A stretch of DNA of 64,000 bases from a virus (Duplodnaviria > Heunggongvirae > Uroviricota > Caudoviricetes), in the IMG/VR virus record IMGVR_UViG_3300045988_004821; one strand, written 5' to 3'. A program made the translations under genes and the position numbers. A model generated the notes under the pieces. It saw only the letters and a program-made list of their open reading frames with translations. It was not told the origin of the DNA and made no database searches. This document shows, in pieces, positions 14,530 to 64,000 of this stretch; within the stretch, counting starts at the first letter, position 1, and every line of letters begins with the position of its first letter.

Positions 14530-15702
14530 ATGGCAGTAGGTGAAATTCAAATTAGTGCCTTGCCTCAAGCATCCTTACCAATTGACCTTAGTGATATCTT
14601 CCATCTTAAGCAGGGTATTGAGGATAAGAGGTGTACTCTTGAGCAATTACTTGCTCCACACGCAAGCCTAAGAAATAACCCTCATGGTGTTACTAAAACA
14701 CAAATTGGTTTAGATAATGTTATTAATGCTCTTCAGTTAGTCGCTGCAAATAACTTATCAGATATTGTTAATGTAGCTGAGGCAAGAGCAAATCTACAGA
14801 TTATGTCTTCAGAAGAGGTTAATAACCTTGTCCAGCAACATATCAAGGACAAGAGTAACCCACACAATACAACTAAGGCACAGGTTGGTTTAAGTAATGT
14901 TCAGAACTGGACAACATCTAATCTGTATAACGAAGATGCAGATAAGTATGCTACAGCAAGAGCAGTAAATAACTTGTACAAGGCTGTTCAGGCTTCTTAT
15001 CCAGTAGGTACTATCCATCTTTCTATGAACTCTGCAAACCCTTCCACATACTTAATTTGTGGAGGTACTTGGGAGTTAGTTTCAAAAGGCAGGGCATTGG
15101 TTGGCTATGACTCTGATACAAGACCAGCAGGTTCTGTATTTGGCGCTTCAACTGTCACTTTGTCAGTTAATAACATGCCTCAGCACTCCCACTCTGTGTC
15201 TCTTAGCGGTGGTGGTCACACTCATAATGCAACTGTGTCAATTTCAGCTTTTGATTATGGGACTAAGACTACAAACTCTTTTGACTATGGGACAAAAGCT
15301 ACTAACACAACTGGTAACCATACACACAGTGTGTCAGGTAACACTAGCACCAATGGTACTCACAACCATGATGTGTATCCTAGAGAAAATGATGGCACTG
15401 GTAATGCTGTGGCTGACTCTGATGGTGGTGGTGCAAGAAGGACATCAAGGACTTCTAGTGATGGTGCGCACTCACACAGCTTTAACGTCACATCTGGTGC
15501 ATCAGGTGACCACAGCCACACGGTTGGTATTGGTGCTCACAGTCATACAGTTGGTATTGGTTCACATACGCATAGTGGCACTGTAACAGTTTCTTCTTCT
15601 GAACATACACATAGTGGCAATACAAATAGTGTTGGTGGAGGTCAGGCAGTTAATATTGAACAGCCATCCTTCGTACTGTATGTATGGCAGAGAACAGCTT
15701 AA
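14530..15702 (+). CDS. tail fiber protein with His-X-His repeat tip
   Basis: C-terminal third has repeated HTHS/HSHS/HSHTVGIG motifs; C-terminus ...YVWQRTA paralogous to next gene. Confidence 0.6.
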   Translation: MAVGEIQISALPQASLPIDLSDIFHLKQGIEDKRCTLEQLLAPHASLRNNPHGVTKTQIGLDNVINALQLVAANNLSDIVNVAEARANLQIMSSEEVNNLVQQHIKDKSNPHNTTKAQVGLSNVQNWTTSNLYNEDADKYATARAVNNLYKAVQASYPVGTIHLSMNSANPSTYLICGGTWELVSKGRALVGYDSDTRPAGSVFGASTVTLSVNNMPQHSHSVSLSGGGHTHNATVSISAFDYGTKTTNSFDYGTKATNTTGNHTHSVSGNTSTNGTHNHDVYPRENDGTGNAVADSDGGGARRTSRTSSDGAHSHSFNVTSGASGDHSHTVGIGAHSHTVGIGSHTHSGTVTVSSSEHTHSGNTNSVGGGQAVNIEQPSFVLYVWQRTA

Positions 15703-59442: not shown

Positions 59443-60222
59443 ATGGGTATTGTAAAAGTTGTAAAAGGTAACTTACTGGCTGCCTTCAAAAACACAGATA
59501 TTGAGTTAATTGCTCATGGTTGCAACTGTCGTAACCTCATGGGCGCTGGAATCGCTCAAAAAATTGCTAAGATTTTCCCAAAAGCTGAAGAAGCTGACCG
59601 GAAATTCCATAAAAAGTTTGGCTACAGTGCTCATGATATCGGATACCAGATGGTTGGTGAGGTGTCACATGCTCGAACGGAGTATGGTTACATTTTTAAC
59701 CTATATACACAGTTGGATGTTGGGAAGTGTGCATCATACCGATACTTAGTGGAGTCACTAGAAAAACTCCGTAAATTTTGCTGGCTGCACAACATTCGTA
59801 AGATTGGTTTACCTATGATTGGGGCAGGTATCGGTGGTTTAGATGCACAAGCTGTGAAAAGCCTCATTAATAGTGTTATGTATAACGTTGATGTGTACCT
59901 CTACGTCTATGATGAAACAATGGCAAGTGTAGTTACCCCTAAGTATGCTACCTCAGCACCACAATTCTATGATGGTGTCGTGCTAAGTGACGGGAAGACT
60001 AATCAAGTTACCCTCTATCAACTTGTTGAAGGTAAGGTTGAGGTTAGTTACCCTCTGGTTAGTGAGATGGGTATGTGCAACAGTGAAATGTTCCCAGTTG
60101 ACCCGTTTGGAAGATATGAAGGTGTATTCTTTGATAACTACCCAGCAGCGTACATCTACACAACAAATCAGGATGAAGTTCACTACTTGCTGTATTCTAA
60201 AAAGTTCAAATTCATAAGCTGA
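59443..60222 (+). CDS. TARG1/DarG-like macrodomain protein (putative ADP-ribose hydrolase) with C-terminal extension
   Basis: AHGCNCRNLMGAGIA and GLPMIGAGIGGLD match TARG1 blocks HCISEDCRMGAGIA and SMPRIGCGLDRL; about 95 extra C-terminal residues. Confidence 0.65.
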   Translation: MGIVKVVKGNLLAAFKNTDIELIAHGCNCRNLMGAGIAQKIAKIFPKAEEADRKFHKKFGYSAHDIGYQMVGEVSHARTEYGYIFNLYTQLDVGKCASYRYLVESLEKLRKFCWLHNIRKIGLPMIGAGIGGLDAQAVKSLINSVMYNVDVYLYVYDETMASVVTPKYATSAPQFYDGVVLSDGKTNQVTLYQLVEGKVEVSYPLVSEMGMCNSEMFPVDPFGRYEGVFFDNYPAAYIYTTNQDEVHYLLYSKKFKFIS

Positions 60223-60255
60223 TTAGTACTTTACAGTATCTACAAATCATCTAAG

Positions 60256-60301
60256 AAGGCTGCCTAACCCATTGAAAAATTTAAGGTAAGGCGGCCTTTT
60301 T
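60256..60301 (+). terminator. long-loop hairpin with T-run after macrodomain gene (possible terminator)
   Basis: AAGGCTGCCT ... AGGCGGCCTT stem (one wobble), 23-nt loop, then TTTTT. Confidence 0.35.
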
Positions 60302-60440
60302 CATTTTCAATTTGTGCAGGTATCTGTAGGGGTCTGTACAGATATCCCAAAAAATCTCATCGCCGGATAGAAAAATCATTTTCAAAACGTGCAGACCCCG
60401 CTCAGGTCGGGCAAGAAAAATCATTTTAGAATCGTGCAGG
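60301..60440 (+). repeat. three 20-bp direct repeats TCATTTT(C/A)NA(A/T)N(T/C)GTGCAG
   Basis: Copies at about 60301-60320, 60376-60395, 60421-60440 in a 490-bp ORF-free region. Confidence 0.5.
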
Positions 60441-60466
60441 TAGGTTTTTATAGAGAGCCAGACCAA

Positions 60467-60497
60467 CCCCTCTCCCCCTCTTACTCCCCCTCTCCCC
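60467..60497. repeat. homopyrimidine mirror repeat (potential H-DNA/triplex)
   Basis: CCCCTCTCCCCCTC-TTA-CTCCCCCTCTCCCC: 14-nt arms with perfect mirror symmetry. Confidence 0.55.
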
Positions 60498-60618
60498 AAA
60501 AGTCAAGAGAAAAATTTGTAGCGGATTGAAAAATAATTATTGATTTGTGTTCTGTTTTGTGGTAGTCGTGTGCGCCCGTTTCATTACAGTTTTTCCAAAA
60601 ATATTTTTAAAATTTTTC

Positions 60619-60647
60619 TTGACTCTTTGAACGTGGTTATCTAGTAT
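60619..60647 (+). promoter_or_regulatory. strong sigma70-like promoter of cassette A1
   Basis: TTGACT-17 bp-TAGTAT with AT-rich UP-like tract upstream; hairpin and RBS follow. Confidence 0.55.
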
Positions 60648-60650
60648 TTG

Positions 60651-60710
60651 CATCAACGGGGAGGGAATGACCTTCCCCACTAAATAAAGTCCTAAACTGG
60701 AGATTCAAAA
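60651..60710 (+). promoter_or_regulatory. cassette A1: 5' leader hairpin plus conserved RBS block
   Basis: ATCAACGGGGAGGGAATGACCTTCCCCACTAAATAAAGTCCTAAACTGGAGATTCAAAA then ATG. Confidence 0.5.
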
Positions 60711-61091
60711 ATGGCATATCGTGCACCTAAATTCATCAACAAAGACAACTTTCGCAACGCACTGGAGAAGTCACTTGATGAGAATTTTAAAGGTAATGTT
60801 ATTGTTGTTCACTCGTTTAATTTTAAGTATGATATCAACGGGAATAAAATCAACCATTACACGGCAACAATGTTAGATGGCACGCTTTCAAGTGAAAAAA
60901 CCATTTTACATGCACTTGCTGGACGTGGTAAAAACCTGATAAAATGCGATAAGAGACGTTATCAGGGTGGCGCATATGGTTATGATGATGCTGTTTATCA
61001 TCTTGAAAATATGGGCTATAAAGTAGAAAAAGCTGGGGTATCGCAAATCATCGGTAGTGATGGCTATGTAACAATCTTCAAAATTAACTGA
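60711..61091 (+). CDS. hypothetical early protein (cassette gene 1)
   Basis: 126-aa ORF behind promoter/hairpin/RBS cassette A1. Confidence 0.4.
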   Translation: MAYRAPKFINKDNFRNALEKSLDENFKGNVIVVHSFNFKYDINGNKINHYTATMLDGTLSSEKTILHALAGRGKNLIKCDKRRYQGGAYGYDDAVYHLENMGYKVEKAGVSQIIGSDGYVTIFKIN

Positions 61092-61180
61092 TAAAGTACT
61101 TTACAAGGGGCTTATAGTTCGATAAAGTAAGCCCCAGATAAAGAGCTTTACCACTAAATCCTAAATTGGAGAACTTAAAA
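61092..61180 (+). promoter_or_regulatory. cassette B1: intergenic hairpin plus conserved leader/RBS
   Basis: AGTACTTTACA, hairpin GGGGCTTA-N13-TAAGCCCC (61107-61135), AGATAAAGAGCTTTACCACTAAATCCTAAATTGGAGAACTTAAAA then ATG. Confidence 0.5.
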
Positions 61181-61190
61181 ATGGCTATTA
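61092..61190 (+). repeat. 99-bp perfect direct repeat, copy 1 (partner 63114-63212)
   Basis: Identical by eye from TAAAGTACTTTACAAGGGG through ATGGCTATTA. Confidence 0.6.
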
Positions 61191-61438
61191 TCAAAAACGT
61201 TGTAATTACCGCAAAGACTCGTGATGACGCTCGTATCATGGCTAAAAAGTTATGCGGGAAAGTGGTTGACAACGGAAAACAATCTGCTGTAAGGTGGGGC
61301 GTGAAGGTTGATAAACAACTAACCTTAAAACGCAGTTCAAACAACCTTTTTAAAGGTGTAAAATCACTCGGTAAAGTGAACGTCTTTACCAAAAAAGGCT
61401 ATAAAATGCACTTATCATTAACTGGCAATTTAATCTGA
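61181..61438 (+). CDS. hypothetical early protein (cassette gene 2)
   Basis: ATG start preferred over track TTG at 61166; preceded by cassette B1. Confidence 0.4.
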   Translation: MAIIKNVVITAKTRDDARIMAKKLCGKVVDNGKQSAVRWGVKVDKQLTLKRSSNNLFKGVKSLGKVNVFTKKGYKMHLSLTGNLI

Positions 61439-61526
61439 TAAAGTACTTTACAGGGGGCTTAAAAGCTGATACCTTAAGCCCCAGATAAAGAGCTTTACCA
61501 CTAAATCCTAAACTGGAGATTCAAAA
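61439..61526 (+). promoter_or_regulatory. cassette B2
   Basis: Hairpin GGGGCTTA-N13-TAAGCCCC (about 61454-61482) with different loop, then conserved leader and RBS. Confidence 0.5.
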
Positions 61527-62039
61527 ATGAAAACTGTAGACGCTACCTTTGAAGTTGTAAAAGAAAAATTCACCATTATTTATGAAGCTGTCAATTGCTT
61601 TGAAGCAAGCCATAATCTTGATAATTGGGAGTTTACAGACGACCATCAAGGCGGTGTGACTGTTAAAAATCCTAACTATCAGCATAATGAATTTAAATAT
61701 GCAATTCCTTTGCATTACAGCCTTAAACAGCTTTCTAGTGACTATGCAAAACAAGGCCGGGGGAATCCATCAAAAGAGGCTTACGCCAGCTTACAGAAAG
61801 AACTAGAAAGAGATTTAGAGGCTTCAGAGTATAACCTTGCCGCGAAAGTTGTGGATGCAAACGGTAGCACGGTTTTAGAAAGTTTTTATCTTGGTTATGC
61901 TTTCGATTGGTGCTATCGTGACGGCGATGATTTAGAGGATAGACTAAAAGAAGAGGTGAACAACGCAGACGCAGAATCTGAAGTATTAGAACGTTTGGAA
62001 TCGTTGAAAGACTCAGTGATGAATATCTTTAAGAACTAA
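61527..62039 (+). CDS. hypothetical acidic early protein (cassette gene 3)
   Basis: 170 aa, Asp/Glu-rich; preceded by cassette B2. Confidence 0.4.
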   Translation: MKTVDATFEVVKEKFTIIYEAVNCFEASHNLDNWEFTDDHQGGVTVKNPNYQHNEFKYAIPLHYSLKQLSSDYAKQGRGNPSKEAYASLQKELERDLEASEYNLAAKVVDANGSTVLESFYLGYAFDWCYRDGDDLEDRLKEEVNNADAESEVLERLESLKDSVMNIFKN

Positions 62040-62130
62040 ATAGATTTCTTTACACGGGGCTAACAAGCGGATATGATAGCCCCAGATAAAGAGATTTATC
62101 AAATTAACCCTTAAACTAGGAGATTCAAAA
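62040..62130 (+). promoter_or_regulatory. cassette B3 (diverged copy)
   Basis: Hairpin GGGGCTA-N14-TAGCCCC (about 62056-62083) with compensatory stem change, then AGATAAAGAG...GGAGATTCAAAA then ATG. Confidence 0.45.
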
Positions 62131-62427
62131 ATGAAATTATCAAATAAAGTTAGGGAAAACCTTAGCAAATTACTCAATAAAATTGATTTTATCGAGACAT
62201 CAAGAAATAGTCATGATGTTATGGAATGGTTACACGGCAAAATAAAAGGCCGTCGTGTAGTGATTTGCTTATGGAATAGTTGCAGGGAGTATAAAAATCC
62301 TGTATTGCAAATTAATGTTTATGATGATACTTGTAAAAGTCCTGTTAAGTCTGAAAGTGATTTACTAGATTCTTATGAGATAACTGTAAATGGCAAAGTG
62401 TCACGCAAAGAGGAAGCACTATGTTAA
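62131..62427 (+). CDS. hypothetical early protein (cassette gene 4)
   Basis: 98-aa ORF preceded by cassette B3. Confidence 0.4.
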   Translation: MKLSNKVRENLSKLLNKIDFIETSRNSHDVMEWLHGKIKGRRVVICLWNSCREYKNPVLQINVYDDTCKSPVKSESDLLDSYEITVNGKVSRKEEALC

Positions 62428-62753
62428 TGATGGGTATCACTGCAATCATTGCTATTATGGCGCTATATAAGGCGTACAGCGCCTACAATCTGGCAAGTAA
62501 GGCAATCACGCAACAGGTCAATAATAGCCTTGTAATGAGTTTTCTGGAGCGTTTAAGTGATGAACAAATAAAACGGTTAGAAATGAGCTTCAGATTTCAA
62601 TCAAAAACTTATCAAATCAGCGACATTTTCAAAGATAATTTTCAGCTTGTCGATGATTATAACTCTCTGATAAATGCTTTAAATATCAGTGACTTAAAAG
62701 ACTATTACACTGTAATTGTCCAAGAACTGAACAAACGAAAAAATTTCTCTTGA
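62421..62753 (+). CDS. hypothetical membrane protein (cassette gene 5)
   Basis: N-terminal hydrophobic helix MGITAIIAIMALY; start overlaps upstream gene. Confidence 0.35.
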   Translation: MLMMGITAIIAIMALYKAYSAYNLASKAITQQVNNSLVMSFLERLSDEQIKRLEMSFRFQSKTYQISDIFKDNFQLVDDYNSLINALNISDLKDYYTVIVQELNKRKNFS

Positions 62754-62778
62754 TTTTAGTTTTAAAAACAAGTAAATT
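62750..62778 (+). promoter_or_regulatory. sigma70-like promoter of cassette A2
   Basis: TTGATT-17 bp-TAAATT followed by ATCAACGGGGAGG hairpin as in A1/A3. Confidence 0.45.
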
Positions 62779-62783
62779 ACTAA

Positions 62784-62843
62784 TCAACGGGGAGGGAATG
62801 GCCTTCCCCACTAAGTAAAGTCCTTAAACTAGGAGATTCTAAA
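62784..62843 (+). promoter_or_regulatory. cassette A2: 5' leader hairpin plus conserved RBS block
   Basis: Near-identical to A1 (GGGGAGGGAATGGCCTTCCCC ... CTAGGAGATTCTAAA then ATG). Confidence 0.5.
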
Positions 62844-63116
62844 ATGTACACTACTAACAACGGTCGCACCTTAAACGTAACCCTACGCCACTATGTGAAC
62901 GGTGTAATGCACTTCGAGGATTTACAAGCTGAACAGCACATTTTGGATTGGCAACTTGCAGGATTCCAAAAAACTGCTACAGGATACGGGAAAAAGATTC
63001 CAACCAGTTGGAAAGTATACTACGAAGGACGTTTACGCAGAATTTATCAAGATGTGCAAAGCAATAGCGCATCGAGTTACATTATAGTAAAAGGCAAAAA
63101 ACTGCATTTAATGTAA
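62844..63116 (+). CDS. hypothetical early protein (cassette gene 6)
   Basis: 90-aa ORF behind promoter/hairpin cassette A2. Confidence 0.4.
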   Translation: MYTTNNGRTLNVTLRHYVNGVMHFEDLQAEQHILDWQLAGFQKTATGYGKKIPTSWKVYYEGRLRRIYQDVQSNSASSYIIVKGKKLHLM

Positions 63117-63202
63117 AGTACTTTACAAGGGGCTTATAGTTCGATAAAGTAAGCCCCAGATAAAGAGCTTTACCACTAAATCCTAAATTGGAGAACTTAA
63201 AA
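63114..63202 (+). promoter_or_regulatory. cassette B4 (identical to B1)
   Basis: Hairpin about 63129-63157; sequence identical to B1 through the first codons. Confidence 0.5.
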
Positions 63203-63212
63203 ATGGCTATTA
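63114..63212 (+). repeat. 99-bp perfect direct repeat, copy 2 (partner 61092-61190)
   Basis: Same sequence as copy 1; spans stop codon, hairpin, leader and first codons. Confidence 0.6.
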
Positions 63213-63607
63213 ATAACCGTGAATTATCAATTTTAAAAGCACGTTTGACCGTTAATCGAATCAACATTATGACATCATCAGCGCCTGATGAGACATTGCA
63301 CAACATTATCGGAAAGATTCAAAGCGTTATTTTAGACGTTGAAAACGTAAAAAGCTCATTGGCTGACGTTGCAGCAGGTATCACACTAGATGGCGCACAA
63401 TATGAAATGTCCGACATGTTAGGCAAATCAAAGGTAATGAATAAAGAGCTTGATTTAAAGATGTTCCGATTTGCTGTTAAAGTATGGCTATCCGTCGAGT
63501 ATGACGCTAATTTTGCAATCGCTGATTTCTTTGCCACTTGGTTACAACGTAATTTGACAAATCACGATTTCCGTGATGTCTGCGATGCAATTTATGCAGA
63601 ACTCTAA
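63203..63607 (+). CDS. hypothetical early protein (cassette gene 7)
   Basis: ATG start preferred over track TTG at 63188; preceded by cassette B4. Confidence 0.4.
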   Translation: MAINNRELSILKARLTVNRINIMTSSAPDETLHNIIGKIQSVILDVENVKSSLADVAAGITLDGAQYEMSDMLGKSKVMNKELDLKMFRFAVKVWLSVEYDANFAIADFFATWLQRNLTNHDFRDVCDAIYAEL

Positions 63608-63616
63608 AAAATTTTG

Positions 63617-63645
63617 TTGACACTGGTTTTTAGATAGATTAAATT
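63617..63645 (+). promoter_or_regulatory. sigma70-like promoter of cassette A3
   Basis: TTGACA-17 bp-TAAATT followed by ATCAACGGGGAGG hairpin. Confidence 0.5.
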
Positions 63646-63649
63646 ACAC

Positions 63650-63708
63650 ATCAACGGGGAGGAAATGACCTCCCCCACTAAATAAAGTCCTAAACTGGAG
63701 ATTCAAAA
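63650..63708 (+). promoter_or_regulatory. cassette A3: 5' leader hairpin plus conserved RBS block
   Basis: GGGGAGG-AAATGA-CCTCCCC perfect 7-bp stem, then ACTAAATAAAGTCCTAAACTGGAGATTCAAAA then ATG. Confidence 0.5.
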
Positions 63709-63912
63709 ATGGCTATTATTAATGGTTTAACCATTGAAACTACACACATCAAAGATATCAAAGTTGGCGATATAGTCCTTTCCCACGGCGTAGAAAAAAC
63801 TGTCACTGCAAAGGATATTAAAGAGGATTCTTTCATGGGTAGGACTCTCTTCGGTGATTCTTATTGCTTAGGCTATCTTGCAGTTTTAAAAGTTGTCAAA
63901 AATAACAAATAA
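63709..63912 (+). CDS. hypothetical early protein (cassette gene 8)
   Basis: 67-aa ORF behind promoter/hairpin cassette A3. Confidence 0.4.
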   Translation: MAIINGLTIETTHIKDIKVGDIVLSHGVEKTVTAKDIKEDSFMGRTLFGDSYCLGYLAVLKVVKNNK

Positions 63913-63997
63913 AGTACTTTACAGGGGGCTTATAAGTCTGTACAGTAAGCCCCAGATAAAGAGCTTTACCACTAAATCCTAAACTGGAGATTCAAAA
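63913..63997 (+). promoter_or_regulatory. cassette B5
   Basis: Hairpin GGGGCTTA-N13-TAAGCCCC about 63925-63953, then conserved leader and RBS. Confidence 0.5.
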
Positions 63998-64000
63998 ATG
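63998..64000 (+). CDS. start codon of a further cassette gene truncated by the window end
   Basis: ATG at the same position relative to cassette B5 as in other cassette genes. Confidence 0.3.

Follow-up and report, generated by a model that had tools for sequence, protein, structure and literature searches.

PeSL-like promoter, stem-loop and leader cassettes probably frame the small-gene modules of a Felix O1-like phage

The stretch of DNA studied here, called the window at its full length of 64,000 nucleotides (nt), comes from the IMG/VR virus record IMGVR_UViG_3300045988_004821 (Caudoviricetes), and from 60.6 kb to its end it carries an array of small genes, most of them preceded by one of two types of repeated cassette. 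An earlier note, made from the letters alone, had pointed out this arrangement and proposed that the cassettes are regulatory. Between 57 and 64 kb the window matches Felix O1-like myoviruses (Ounavirinae, genus Felixounavirus); 258 phage records match, with Escherichia phage AYO145A at the top (94.7% identity). The cassettes are interpreted below as probably forming a system of promoter, stem-loop and leader units resembling the promoter-early stem-loops (PeSLs) of T4-like phages (Arbiol, 2010, PMC2839356; Comeau, 2014, PMC4122927), and the array, as part of the same reading, as a hyperplastic region of a Felix O1-like phage, built of single- or two-gene modules.

Three type A and five type B cassettes lie between 60.6 and 64.0 kb, all on the + strand like the genes they precede, and all eight span the interval between the upstream stop codon and an ATG. 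The first, A1 (60596-60710), has an AT-rich upstream stretch, a -35 element TTGACT (60619-60624) and a -10 element TAGTAT (60642-60647; promoter scan 9/12), a predicted transcription start at about 60654-60656, a hairpin at 60658-60678 (GGGGAGGG/CCTTCCCC, -17.9 kcal/mol) and a Shine-Dalgarno (SD) sequence GGAG at 60699-60702. It precedes a gene of 126 amino acids (aa; 60711-61091, phrog_4495), at whose stop codon (61089-61091) cassette B1 begins (61089-61180). B1 carries TTTACA at 61100-61105, TAAAGT at 61123-61128, its SD at 61168-61171 and a two-part hairpin at 61092-61150, with an upper stem pairing 61107-61115 with 61127-61135 (-25.3 kcal/mol, z -4.1); behind it lies an 85-aa gene (61181-61438, phrog_5089). 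Cassette B2 (61436-61526; TTTACA 61447-61452, TACCTT 61470-61475; hairpin 61439-61497, upper stem 61454-61462/61474-61482, -25.6 kcal/mol, z -3.2) leads into a 170-aa gene (61527-62039, phrog_4190) that is absent from phage wV8. The divergent B3 (62037-62130; TTTACA 62049-62054, TATGAT 62072-62077, promoter scan 10/12), whose hairpin at 62040-62099 has an unbroken 13-bp lower stem (-27.2 kcal/mol, z -5.5), is followed by two overlapping genes of 98 aa (62131-62427) and 110 aa (62421-62753), a unit (62131-62753) with no cassette inside it. Then come A2 (62739-62843; TTGATT 62750-62755, TAAATT 62773-62778, hairpin 62789-62809 at -19.8 kcal/mol, SD 62832-62835) with a 90-aa gene (62844-63116, phrog_3436), and B4 (63114-63202; -35 63122-63127, -10 TAAAGT 63145-63150, hairpin 63113-63173 at -27.2 kcal/mol, z -5.2) with a 134-aa gene (63203-63607, phrog_4327). 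A3 (63606-63708; TTGACA 63617-63622, TAAATT 63640-63645, promoter scan 10/12; hairpin 63656-63675 at -17.2 kcal/mol; SD 63697-63700) precedes a 67-aa gene (63709-63912, phrog_3623), and B5 (63910-64000; -35 63918-63923, -10 TACAGT 63941-63946, hairpin 63910-63968 at -25.1 kcal/mol, z -4.2) closes the window with the ATG of the next gene (63998-64000). The array of AYO145A comprises 14 genes (orf015-028) and is closed by a terminator, about seven of them lying beyond the point that matches the window end, so the window ends mid-array.

Profile hidden Markov models built from the window copies and run on both strands found exactly three type A and five type B copies in the whole window. Three diagnostic motifs matched four, five and three times, only within 60.6-64.0 kb, with 0.00 matches expected from shuffles, and a repeat finder grouped the cassettes into families of 89-104 nt; they are direct repeats of 90-110 bases, 75-100% alike. 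The places of the eight cassettes and the open reading frame (ORF) sizes of 67-170 aa are as the earlier note gave them. Its statement that each gene is preceded by a cassette holds for eight of the nine gene starts, the ninth gene being present only as its ATG, and fails for the gene at 62421-62753, which overlaps the preceding gene by 7 nt (ATGTTAATGA, 62421-62427). This overlap, with a start inside the stop region, is the only cassette-free gene junction in the window's array and suggests translational coupling of the 98-aa and 110-aa genes. From the proposed type B consensus B3 (62040-62130) departs in ATTTCTTTACA, a GGGGCTA/TAGCCCC stem and AGATTTATCAAATTAACCC. Likewise, the Met-Ala-Ile start that had been described as conserved is found in three genes of the window and is not general: in 132 cassette-gene junctions from 12 loci, namely the window and 11 further phages, the second codon is most often Ala (51) or Lys (30). 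Neither Pfam nor NCBIfam gave a match for any of the eight array proteins, which all belong to PHROGs whose function is unknown; three of them, compared with the sequences of the PDB, gave no match there either. Since no homology came to light, the host-takeover or anti-defence roles that the earlier note suggested for such arrays are a conjecture.

Both cassette types appear to carry a promoter. Alignment of type B, made with 46 copies and then with 168 unique variants, brought out TTTACA-N17/18-TAnnnT in 97 of 98 unique cores from four genera (N17 in 88, N18 in 9), with 13 different -10 hexamers that are all of the form TAnnnT. Type B had been read as a stop codon, a hairpin and a leader with no promoter, a description that has to be given up. 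The invariant CA of the -35 element sits in the internal loop of the hairpin and the invariant TA of the -10 element in its terminal loop, and neighbouring loop positions vary freely; because both dinucleotides are unpaired, their conservation is not explained by pairing. Type B is accordingly predicted, from its sequence, to be a sigma70-type promoter as well as a hairpin, with a start at the A of CCCC-AGATAAAG (CCCC^AGAUAAAG), seven bases past the -10 element. The promoter of type A varies, with TTGACA, TTGACT, TTGATT, TTGCAA or TAGACA, a 17-nt spacer and mostly TAAATT. A consensus promoter scan flags four of the five type B and two of the three type A cassettes of the window. The two types also differ in the discriminator between the -10 element and the predicted start, which is invariant and G+C-rich in type B (AAGCCCC) and AT-rich in type A (ACTAATC). 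With discriminators this unlike, type A and type B promoters could differ in their response to guanosine tetraphosphate (ppGpp) and DksA or to supercoiling. A MotA-type middle promoter was also considered. The MotA box of T4, TGCTTtA, has its centre near -30 and lies some 12-13 bp upstream of the -10 element; TGCTTTA does occur in the Mooglevirus, Suspvirus and Erwinia copies, but it ends 19 nt before the -10 element rather than about 13, and this candidate was rejected because of that spacing.

The hairpin of type B, described in the earlier note as a small stem of 8 bp, is really a structure of about 60 nt in two parts: an upper stem of 9 bp, a 3x3 internal loop and a lower stem of 11-12 bp. 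Its arms were anchored on TTTACA and on GATAAAG. The nine pairs of the upper stem are paired in 94-100% of copies, and the next two positions in 19% and 36%. Compensatory changes in this stem include GC<->UA (in all Erwinia copies), CG/UG/UA, UA<->AU and AU<->UA, and the ninth pair occurs as six pair types. The lower stem joins the leader AUAAAG.GCUUUA to the -35 region and the flank upstream of it by 11-12 pairs with one A.A mismatch; 96.9% of its positions are paired, and pair 11 switches between GC and UA in divergent copies. When 77 sequences were aligned independently with MAFFT, 95.6% of cells were paired against 91.6% in shuffles (0/500), and the covariation score is 0.135 against 0.072 (0/500); when the partner columns are slid as a control, pairing falls to 32-56%. 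RNA folding returned the same two-part structure for all five type B copies of the window, at -25 to -27 kcal/mol and with z values of -3.2 to -5.5. The upper stem holds about 73 G.U wobbles and one A.C, and the lower stem has one U.G that is almost fixed; because G.U far outnumber A.C, the structure is assigned to the + (sense) strand, where on this evidence it would form in mRNA or in single-stranded DNA. With 11-12 bp, a 3x3 internal loop and 9 bp, or about two helical turns, it has the size of a ribonuclease (RNase) III signal.

No run of T follows either stem in any cassette, the flanks being AGATAAAG and ACTAAAT, and a terminator scan flags no cassette. Several cassette hairpins are labelled rho-independent terminators in the GenBank records of XTG1 and wV8, on the minus strand, opposite to the genes, and with no T-run. 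A search of Rfam gave no match above the gathering score, only two sub-threshold chance matches. In type A a conserved ...ATCAAC stands between the promoter and the hairpin, whose stem begins 2-4 nt after the predicted start. The sequences of these hairpins differ, and 42 of 45 unique segments nevertheless fold into stems of at least 5 bp, with variants such as GGGGAGG/CCUCCCC, GGGAGG/CCUCCC and GGGGC/GCCCC. A hairpin this close to the 5' end has the geometry that protects an mRNA from 5'-end-dependent decay. Both cassette types share the 3' leader ACTAAAT..CCTAAACTGGAG, in which GGAG stands 7-10 nt before the ATG in the 132 junctions and exactly 8 nt before it in 93 of them.

By similarity searches both cassette types occur in about 250-290 phage records, almost all of enterobacterial or Erwinia hosts. 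The 12 loci compared cover Felixounavirus, Mooglevirus, Suspvirus and Kolesnikvirus (the Erwinia phages); the cassettes stand in the equivalent array of all 11 further phages, the Erwinia locus having type B only. Relatives without the cassettes, which the earlier note had named as evidence that would count against it, were looked for, and conservation in four Ounavirinae genera was the result. In a 16-mer scan of IMG/VR, loci with cassettes were confined to contigs of about 53-94 kb, the majority being full-length genomes of Ounavirinae size (84-94 kb), and the matches are mostly the same isolates in fragments; single 16-mer matches on other IMG/VR contigs are attributable to chance, a profile search finding no cassette there. 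Outside the enterobacterial records, the 147-kb Staphylococcus phage SA1 (GU169904.1) has four matches to cassettes of the Felix O1 type at 87% identity, and there are matches in one or two records with Campylobacter names; the assemblies behind such records may be mixed or mislabelled.

When ORFs were clustered and cassettes and genes were placed together on a map of the 12 arrays, the backbone gene order proved to be kept and the differences to consist of whole units. A 68-aa gene 5' of the 126-aa gene is present or absent depending on the array, as is an 87-aa gene near the array end. Felix O1 lacks the 126-aa and 85-aa genes together, and also a two-gene unit found downstream of the window's end. 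One slot is taken by either the 67-aa gene or an unrelated 82-aa gene, with XTG1 having both; another slot holds five different small ORFs across the phages, and in Citrobacter phage Michonne (2425-3295) the 85-aa gene and its cassette are duplicated in tandem. Most variable units are flanked by cassettes on both sides, which bears out the idea that the cassettes coincide with the borders of modules differing between related phages. This does not hold for a 62-aa gene inserted in XTG1, where the gene that comes next lacks a cassette, or for small ORFs of Mooglevirus and Suspvirus that stand directly behind a neighbouring gene. Conversely, pairs of genes that have no cassette between them stay joined, the 98-aa and 110-aa genes being adjacent in 11 of 11 non-Erwinia arrays. 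A family of 62-65 aa that occupies different slots in XTG1 and Michonne was considered as a recent translocation and set aside, the copies being only distantly related.

Some junctions can be located within the cassettes themselves. In wV8 a single cassette lies between the 85-aa and 98-aa genes; it matches the window's cassette before the 170-aa gene up to GGAGATTCAAAAATGAAA and then continues into the 98-aa gene, which places the crossover in the shared segment between SD and ATG. The Michonne duplication joins the ATG of a complete cassette to the CTTTACA of the next, so that two type B copies stand head to tail (...AAAATG|CTTTACA...). The window's own first cassette combines the array's first promoter with the standard type A hairpin and leader, joined at ATCAAC, and the cassette in its 85-aa slot bears the 3' signature GGAGAACTTAAAAATGGCTATTA of the 134-aa slot, as found there in AYO145A, Felix O1 and the window itself. 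The regions of B1 and B4 (61092-61190 and 63114-63212) are 100% identical over 99 nt, first codons ATGGCTATTA included, although they lie 2 kb apart and their AYO145A counterparts differ; from its sequence this looks like a recent gene-conversion footprint. Mean identity of type B copies is 81.4% between different slots of one genome, 76.8% between the same slot of different genera and 76.2% between different slots of different genera, and orthologous genes are 70-77% identical between genera. Since cassettes are more alike within a genome than in the same slot across genera, and given the junctions and the conversion footprint, these comparisons indicate recurrent exchange among cassettes.

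The array stands 3' of rIIA/rIIB and of a macro-domain gene (59443-60222), with a terminator-like hairpin and a gap of about 400 non-coding bp in between. This long hairpin with a T-run (60255-60300, + strand), read from the sequence, forms the left border of the array; the AYO145A record annotates a terminator at the equivalent position, and the Felix O1 equivalent is terminator t13 (PMC3185647, Table 2). Within the gap, at 60301-60497, a 19-nt repeat TCATTTTnnAnnnGTGCAG occurs three times (60301, 60376 and 60421) and is followed by a polypyrimidine tract CCCCTCTCCCCCTCTTACTCCCCCTCTCCCC (60467-60497). All 11 loci from Felixounavirus, Mooglevirus and Suspvirus keep the repeats, and eight of them keep the tract; the Erwinia phage locus has neither. 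At 60220-60235 TGATTAGTACTTTACA stands behind the macro-domain gene's stop codon; it corresponds to the 5' half of type B but has no GGGG hairpin, and a regular-expression search found it only in the window among the 12 loci. It is reminiscent of what has been called 'degraded half PeSLs' in T4-like phages. At the other side, the record of Salmonella phage UAB_69 has a direct terminal repeat of 618 bp (14626-15243) about 480 bp downstream of the array's last gene, from which it follows that the array adjoins a physical genome end and is transcribed towards it. Whether the array is the first-injected end of the genome was checked with this record and with that of UAB_Phi87, whose start is not its terminal repeat.

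The timing of expression is known in part from Felix O1, where reverse transcription polymerase chain reaction (RT-PCR) places the peaks of array ORFs 16, 20, 21 and 22 at 5 min (PMC3185647, Table 3). To this extent the placing of the array in an early region stands, and it is probably early-expressed; the same RT-PCR, which is not quantitative (PMC3185647), agrees less well for other ORFs, as weighed below, and the timing does not sort by cassette type. The repeats themselves have been noticed before, as direct repeats only: the wV8 record annotates them as DR_1 to DR_9, and the Felix O1 paper gives them as such, lists no promoters in the array and calls transcriptional regulation unknown (PMC3185647). 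Early regulation in Felix O1-like phages is likewise described as unanswered in the paper on VpaE1 (PMC4690856). A literature search found no paper tying the Felix O1-type repeats to PeSLs, no mention of Felix O1-like phages in the PeSL papers, no Felixounavirus transcriptome and no earlier interpretation of the array repeats.

From this architecture we infer promoter activity, RNA end positions, a molecular role for the hairpins and a recombination mechanism along the following lines. Each cassette, opening in AT-rich sequence with the upstream stop codon, would supply a promoter for unmodified host sigma70 RNA polymerase, near TTGACA-N17-TAAATT in type A and TTTACA-N17-TAnnnT in type B, together with a leader whose GGAG mostly stands 8 nt ahead of the ATG. 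The G+C-rich hairpin of type A, lying 2-4 nt past the predicted start, would cap the 5' end of the mRNA and shield it from 5'-end-dependent decay. The type B promoter would be embedded in the hairpin; because the predicted start is just 3' of the upper stem, the whole hairpin would form only in RNA coming from upstream. In such RNA it would mark the upstream message's 3' end, as an attenuator, as a processing and 3'-stabilising structure, or as both. Finally, being direct repeats 75-100% alike, the cassettes would serve as substrates of homologous recombination or gene conversion, by which whole modules could be deleted, duplicated or replaced while the expression signals of their neighbours stay intact. 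In outline this agrees with the earlier note, which also saw regulatory cassettes that offer homology for the shuffling of modules.

Several points weigh against this interpretation. The promoter activity, the start sites and the ends of the RNAs are predictions; the promoter scan is weak on its own, with 23 sites against 14.3 expected in so AT-rich a region and three of the eight cassettes below its threshold. The TTTA of the -35 element and the last two bases of the -10 element are also stem positions, so part of the conservation of both could be structural. G.T pairs are tolerated in single-stranded DNA as well, and the asymmetry of the wobbles tells the strand, not the molecule. The copies are related by shared descent and conversion, so that counts overstate the number of events. 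Since these hairpins have no U-tract, the terminator role of the PeSLs of RB49 cannot be assumed for them, and in Felix O1 the RT-PCR puts ORFs 17, 19 and 23 at 25 min (PMC3185647, Table 3).

Against this background, type B might be purely an RNA element: polycistronic RNA from the type A promoters would be cut at the type B hairpins into stable monocistronic messages, much like the early RNA of T7, either by an RNase III-type enzyme or, within the AGAUAAAG tract, by RNase E, with TTTACA and TAnnnT being by-products. A helix of about 20 bp with a 3x3 internal loop does have the size and form of E. coli RNase III substrates (PMC3867540), covariation and G.U wobbles point to sense RNA, and part of both hexamers is base-paired. 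Yet the unpaired CA and TA are invariant at the exact sigma70 -35 and -10 positions, with a spacing of 17-18 bp, while neighbouring loop bases vary, and runs of four type B cassettes, like the type-B-only Erwinia locus, would leave long promoterless stretches. We regard an RNA-only role as unlikely, although RNA processing could go together with the main reading, should type B have both functions. Acting as DNA, the inverted repeats could be operators for a dimeric phage or host regulator, or folded single-strand or cruciform targets of a recombinase or structure-specific nuclease that moves modules in the manner of integrons. TAAAG-N2-CTTTA, present at the -35 element and again just past the predicted start, would suit an operator, as would TAAAGTACTTTA, a perfect palindrome that recurs as TAAAGAGCTTTA 47 bp downstream; module exchange is seen, and the PeSL authors themselves speculated about a protein targeting the GGGG...CCCC motif. 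In divergent copies, however, neither half-site is palindromic in itself, yet the two remain complementary to each other (GC->UA, pair 11 of the lower stem), which argues for a stem and disfavours two independent palindromic operators. On the opposite strand the numerous G.U pairs would turn into A.C mismatches, the wV8 crossover lies in the SD-ATG leader and not in the hairpin, and no recombinase is annotated in the fetched regions, whole genomes not having been screened. Such a DNA-level role is improbable.

That the hairpins are ordinary intrinsic terminators, isolating each gene as a moron-like unit, would agree with the behaviour of RB49 PeSL stem-loops, which terminated transcription in a reporter, and with the labels in some GenBank records. 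Those labels are on the opposite strand, though, and with CCCC-AGATAAAG and CCCC-ACTAAAT free of T-runs and the scan blank at every cassette, this explanation was rejected as very improbable. Nor do we give more than minimal credence to selfish elements of the REP (repetitive extragenic palindromic) or MITE (miniature inverted-repeat transposable element) kind, spread into intergenic gaps with no role in expression: the cassettes are short, near-palindromic, repeated and intergenic, but they are confined to one array and conserved in the equivalent array of four genera with compensatory changes. As an extension of the PeSL-like reading, type B might be dual-coded, a sigma70 promoter inside an RNase III-type processing hairpin, so that read-through RNA, cut at the internal loop, and newly started RNA share nearly the same 5' end (CCCC^AGAUAAAG). 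This is a tentative idea that we hold rather doubtful. If it were true, the upstream message would keep a protective 3' hairpin and every module would yield a uniform, monocistronic-like mRNA whatever lay upstream; modules would be freely interchangeable, which could explain the homogenised architecture.

The PeSL-like reading has several consequences. Two papers on Felix O1-like phages state that the organisation and timing of transcription are unknown, and identify no promoters in the array (PMC3185647; PMC4690856). The cassettes provide about a dozen candidate host-type promoters with defined leaders, which makes the transcription timing of these phages directly testable. The idea behind PeSLs, of expression signals that double as recombination linkers, would be extended to a second, unrelated group of virulent myoviruses, and the covariation and strand asymmetry, which the work on T4-like phages did not have, show selection of the stem-loop as a sense-strand structure. 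The naturally variable, cassette-bounded slots are likely to be tolerant sites for engineering phages of the Felix O1 type for biocontrol or therapy, and the variable ORFs make a short candidate list for host-interaction screens.

Among known systems, the attC cassettes of integrons are arrays of small ORFs in the same orientation, separated by imperfect palindromes whose folded structure is strand-specific. The array studied here likewise has small ORFs in one orientation, imperfect palindromes and a strand-specific fold; it differs in that sequence as well as structure is highly conserved, a promoter and SD lie inside the repeat, the mapped crossover is outside the hairpin and the fetched regions contain no integrase. 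Phage morons, as defined by Hendrix and colleagues, are small accessory genes with their own promoter (and terminator) inserted between phage genes. Here one shared family of repeated cassettes takes the place of individual promoter/terminator pairs, and there are no canonical terminators. Stem-loops at the 5' terminus of an mRNA, such as that of the ompA 5' untranslated region, stabilise it by blocking 5'-end-dependent attack by RNase E; the hairpin of type A is comparable, lying 2-4 nt from a predicted 5' end. In the early RNA of T7, five RNase III signals have internal loops that give single-strand cleavage and leave stabilising 3' hairpins (Nicholson review, PMC3867540). The type B hairpins resemble these signals, being intercistronic hairpins of about 20 bp with an internal loop between small early genes, and cleavage would leave a 3' hairpin on the upstream message; it is a resemblance only, and the T7 sites contain no promoter.

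The closest likeness is with the PeSLs of RB49/phi1, T4/PST and KVP40/nt-1, which consist of a stop codon in AT-rich sequence, a sigma70-like promoter, a GGGG...CCCC stem-loop, an SD and an ATG, the stem-loop being placed between the -35 and -10 elements, overlapping a box or downstream of the -10 element (PMC2839356; PMC4122927). They occur among ORFans in hyperplastic regions and at indel boundaries, and recombine into mini-circles (PMC2839356; PMC4122927). All eight cassettes described here are intergenic units of about 100 bp running from a stop codon to an SD and ATG, and at the level of sequence they match in the sigma70-like -35/-10 elements, the spacing of about 17 bp and the AT-rich upstream stretch. 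The type B stem-loop lies between the -35 and -10 elements and overlaps the latter, that of type A lies downstream of the -10 element, and both types are confined to one array of ORFs of unknown function, at the borders of indels and replacements between relatives. The -35 form of type B, TTTACW, is also that of T4/PST, whose early promoters are reported as TTTACW-N17-TAYWAT (PMC4122927). Every PeSL feature that can be judged from sequence is thus found here. The differences are that the lineage is Ounavirinae and not T4-like, similarity searches having given almost only Ounavirinae-like records; that the type B stem-loop is a two-part structure of about 60 nt with a lower stem formed by the -35 region and the transcribed leader; and that two discrete cassette classes alternate within one array. 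In addition, promoter activity, terminator activity in a reporter and mini-circles were demonstrated experimentally for RB49 (PMC2839356), whereas in the present array promoter activity is predicted and termination, with no T-run after the stems, is doubtful. It would accordingly be a structurally distinct instance of the PeSL principle, independently evolved or highly diverged, rather than a new principle.

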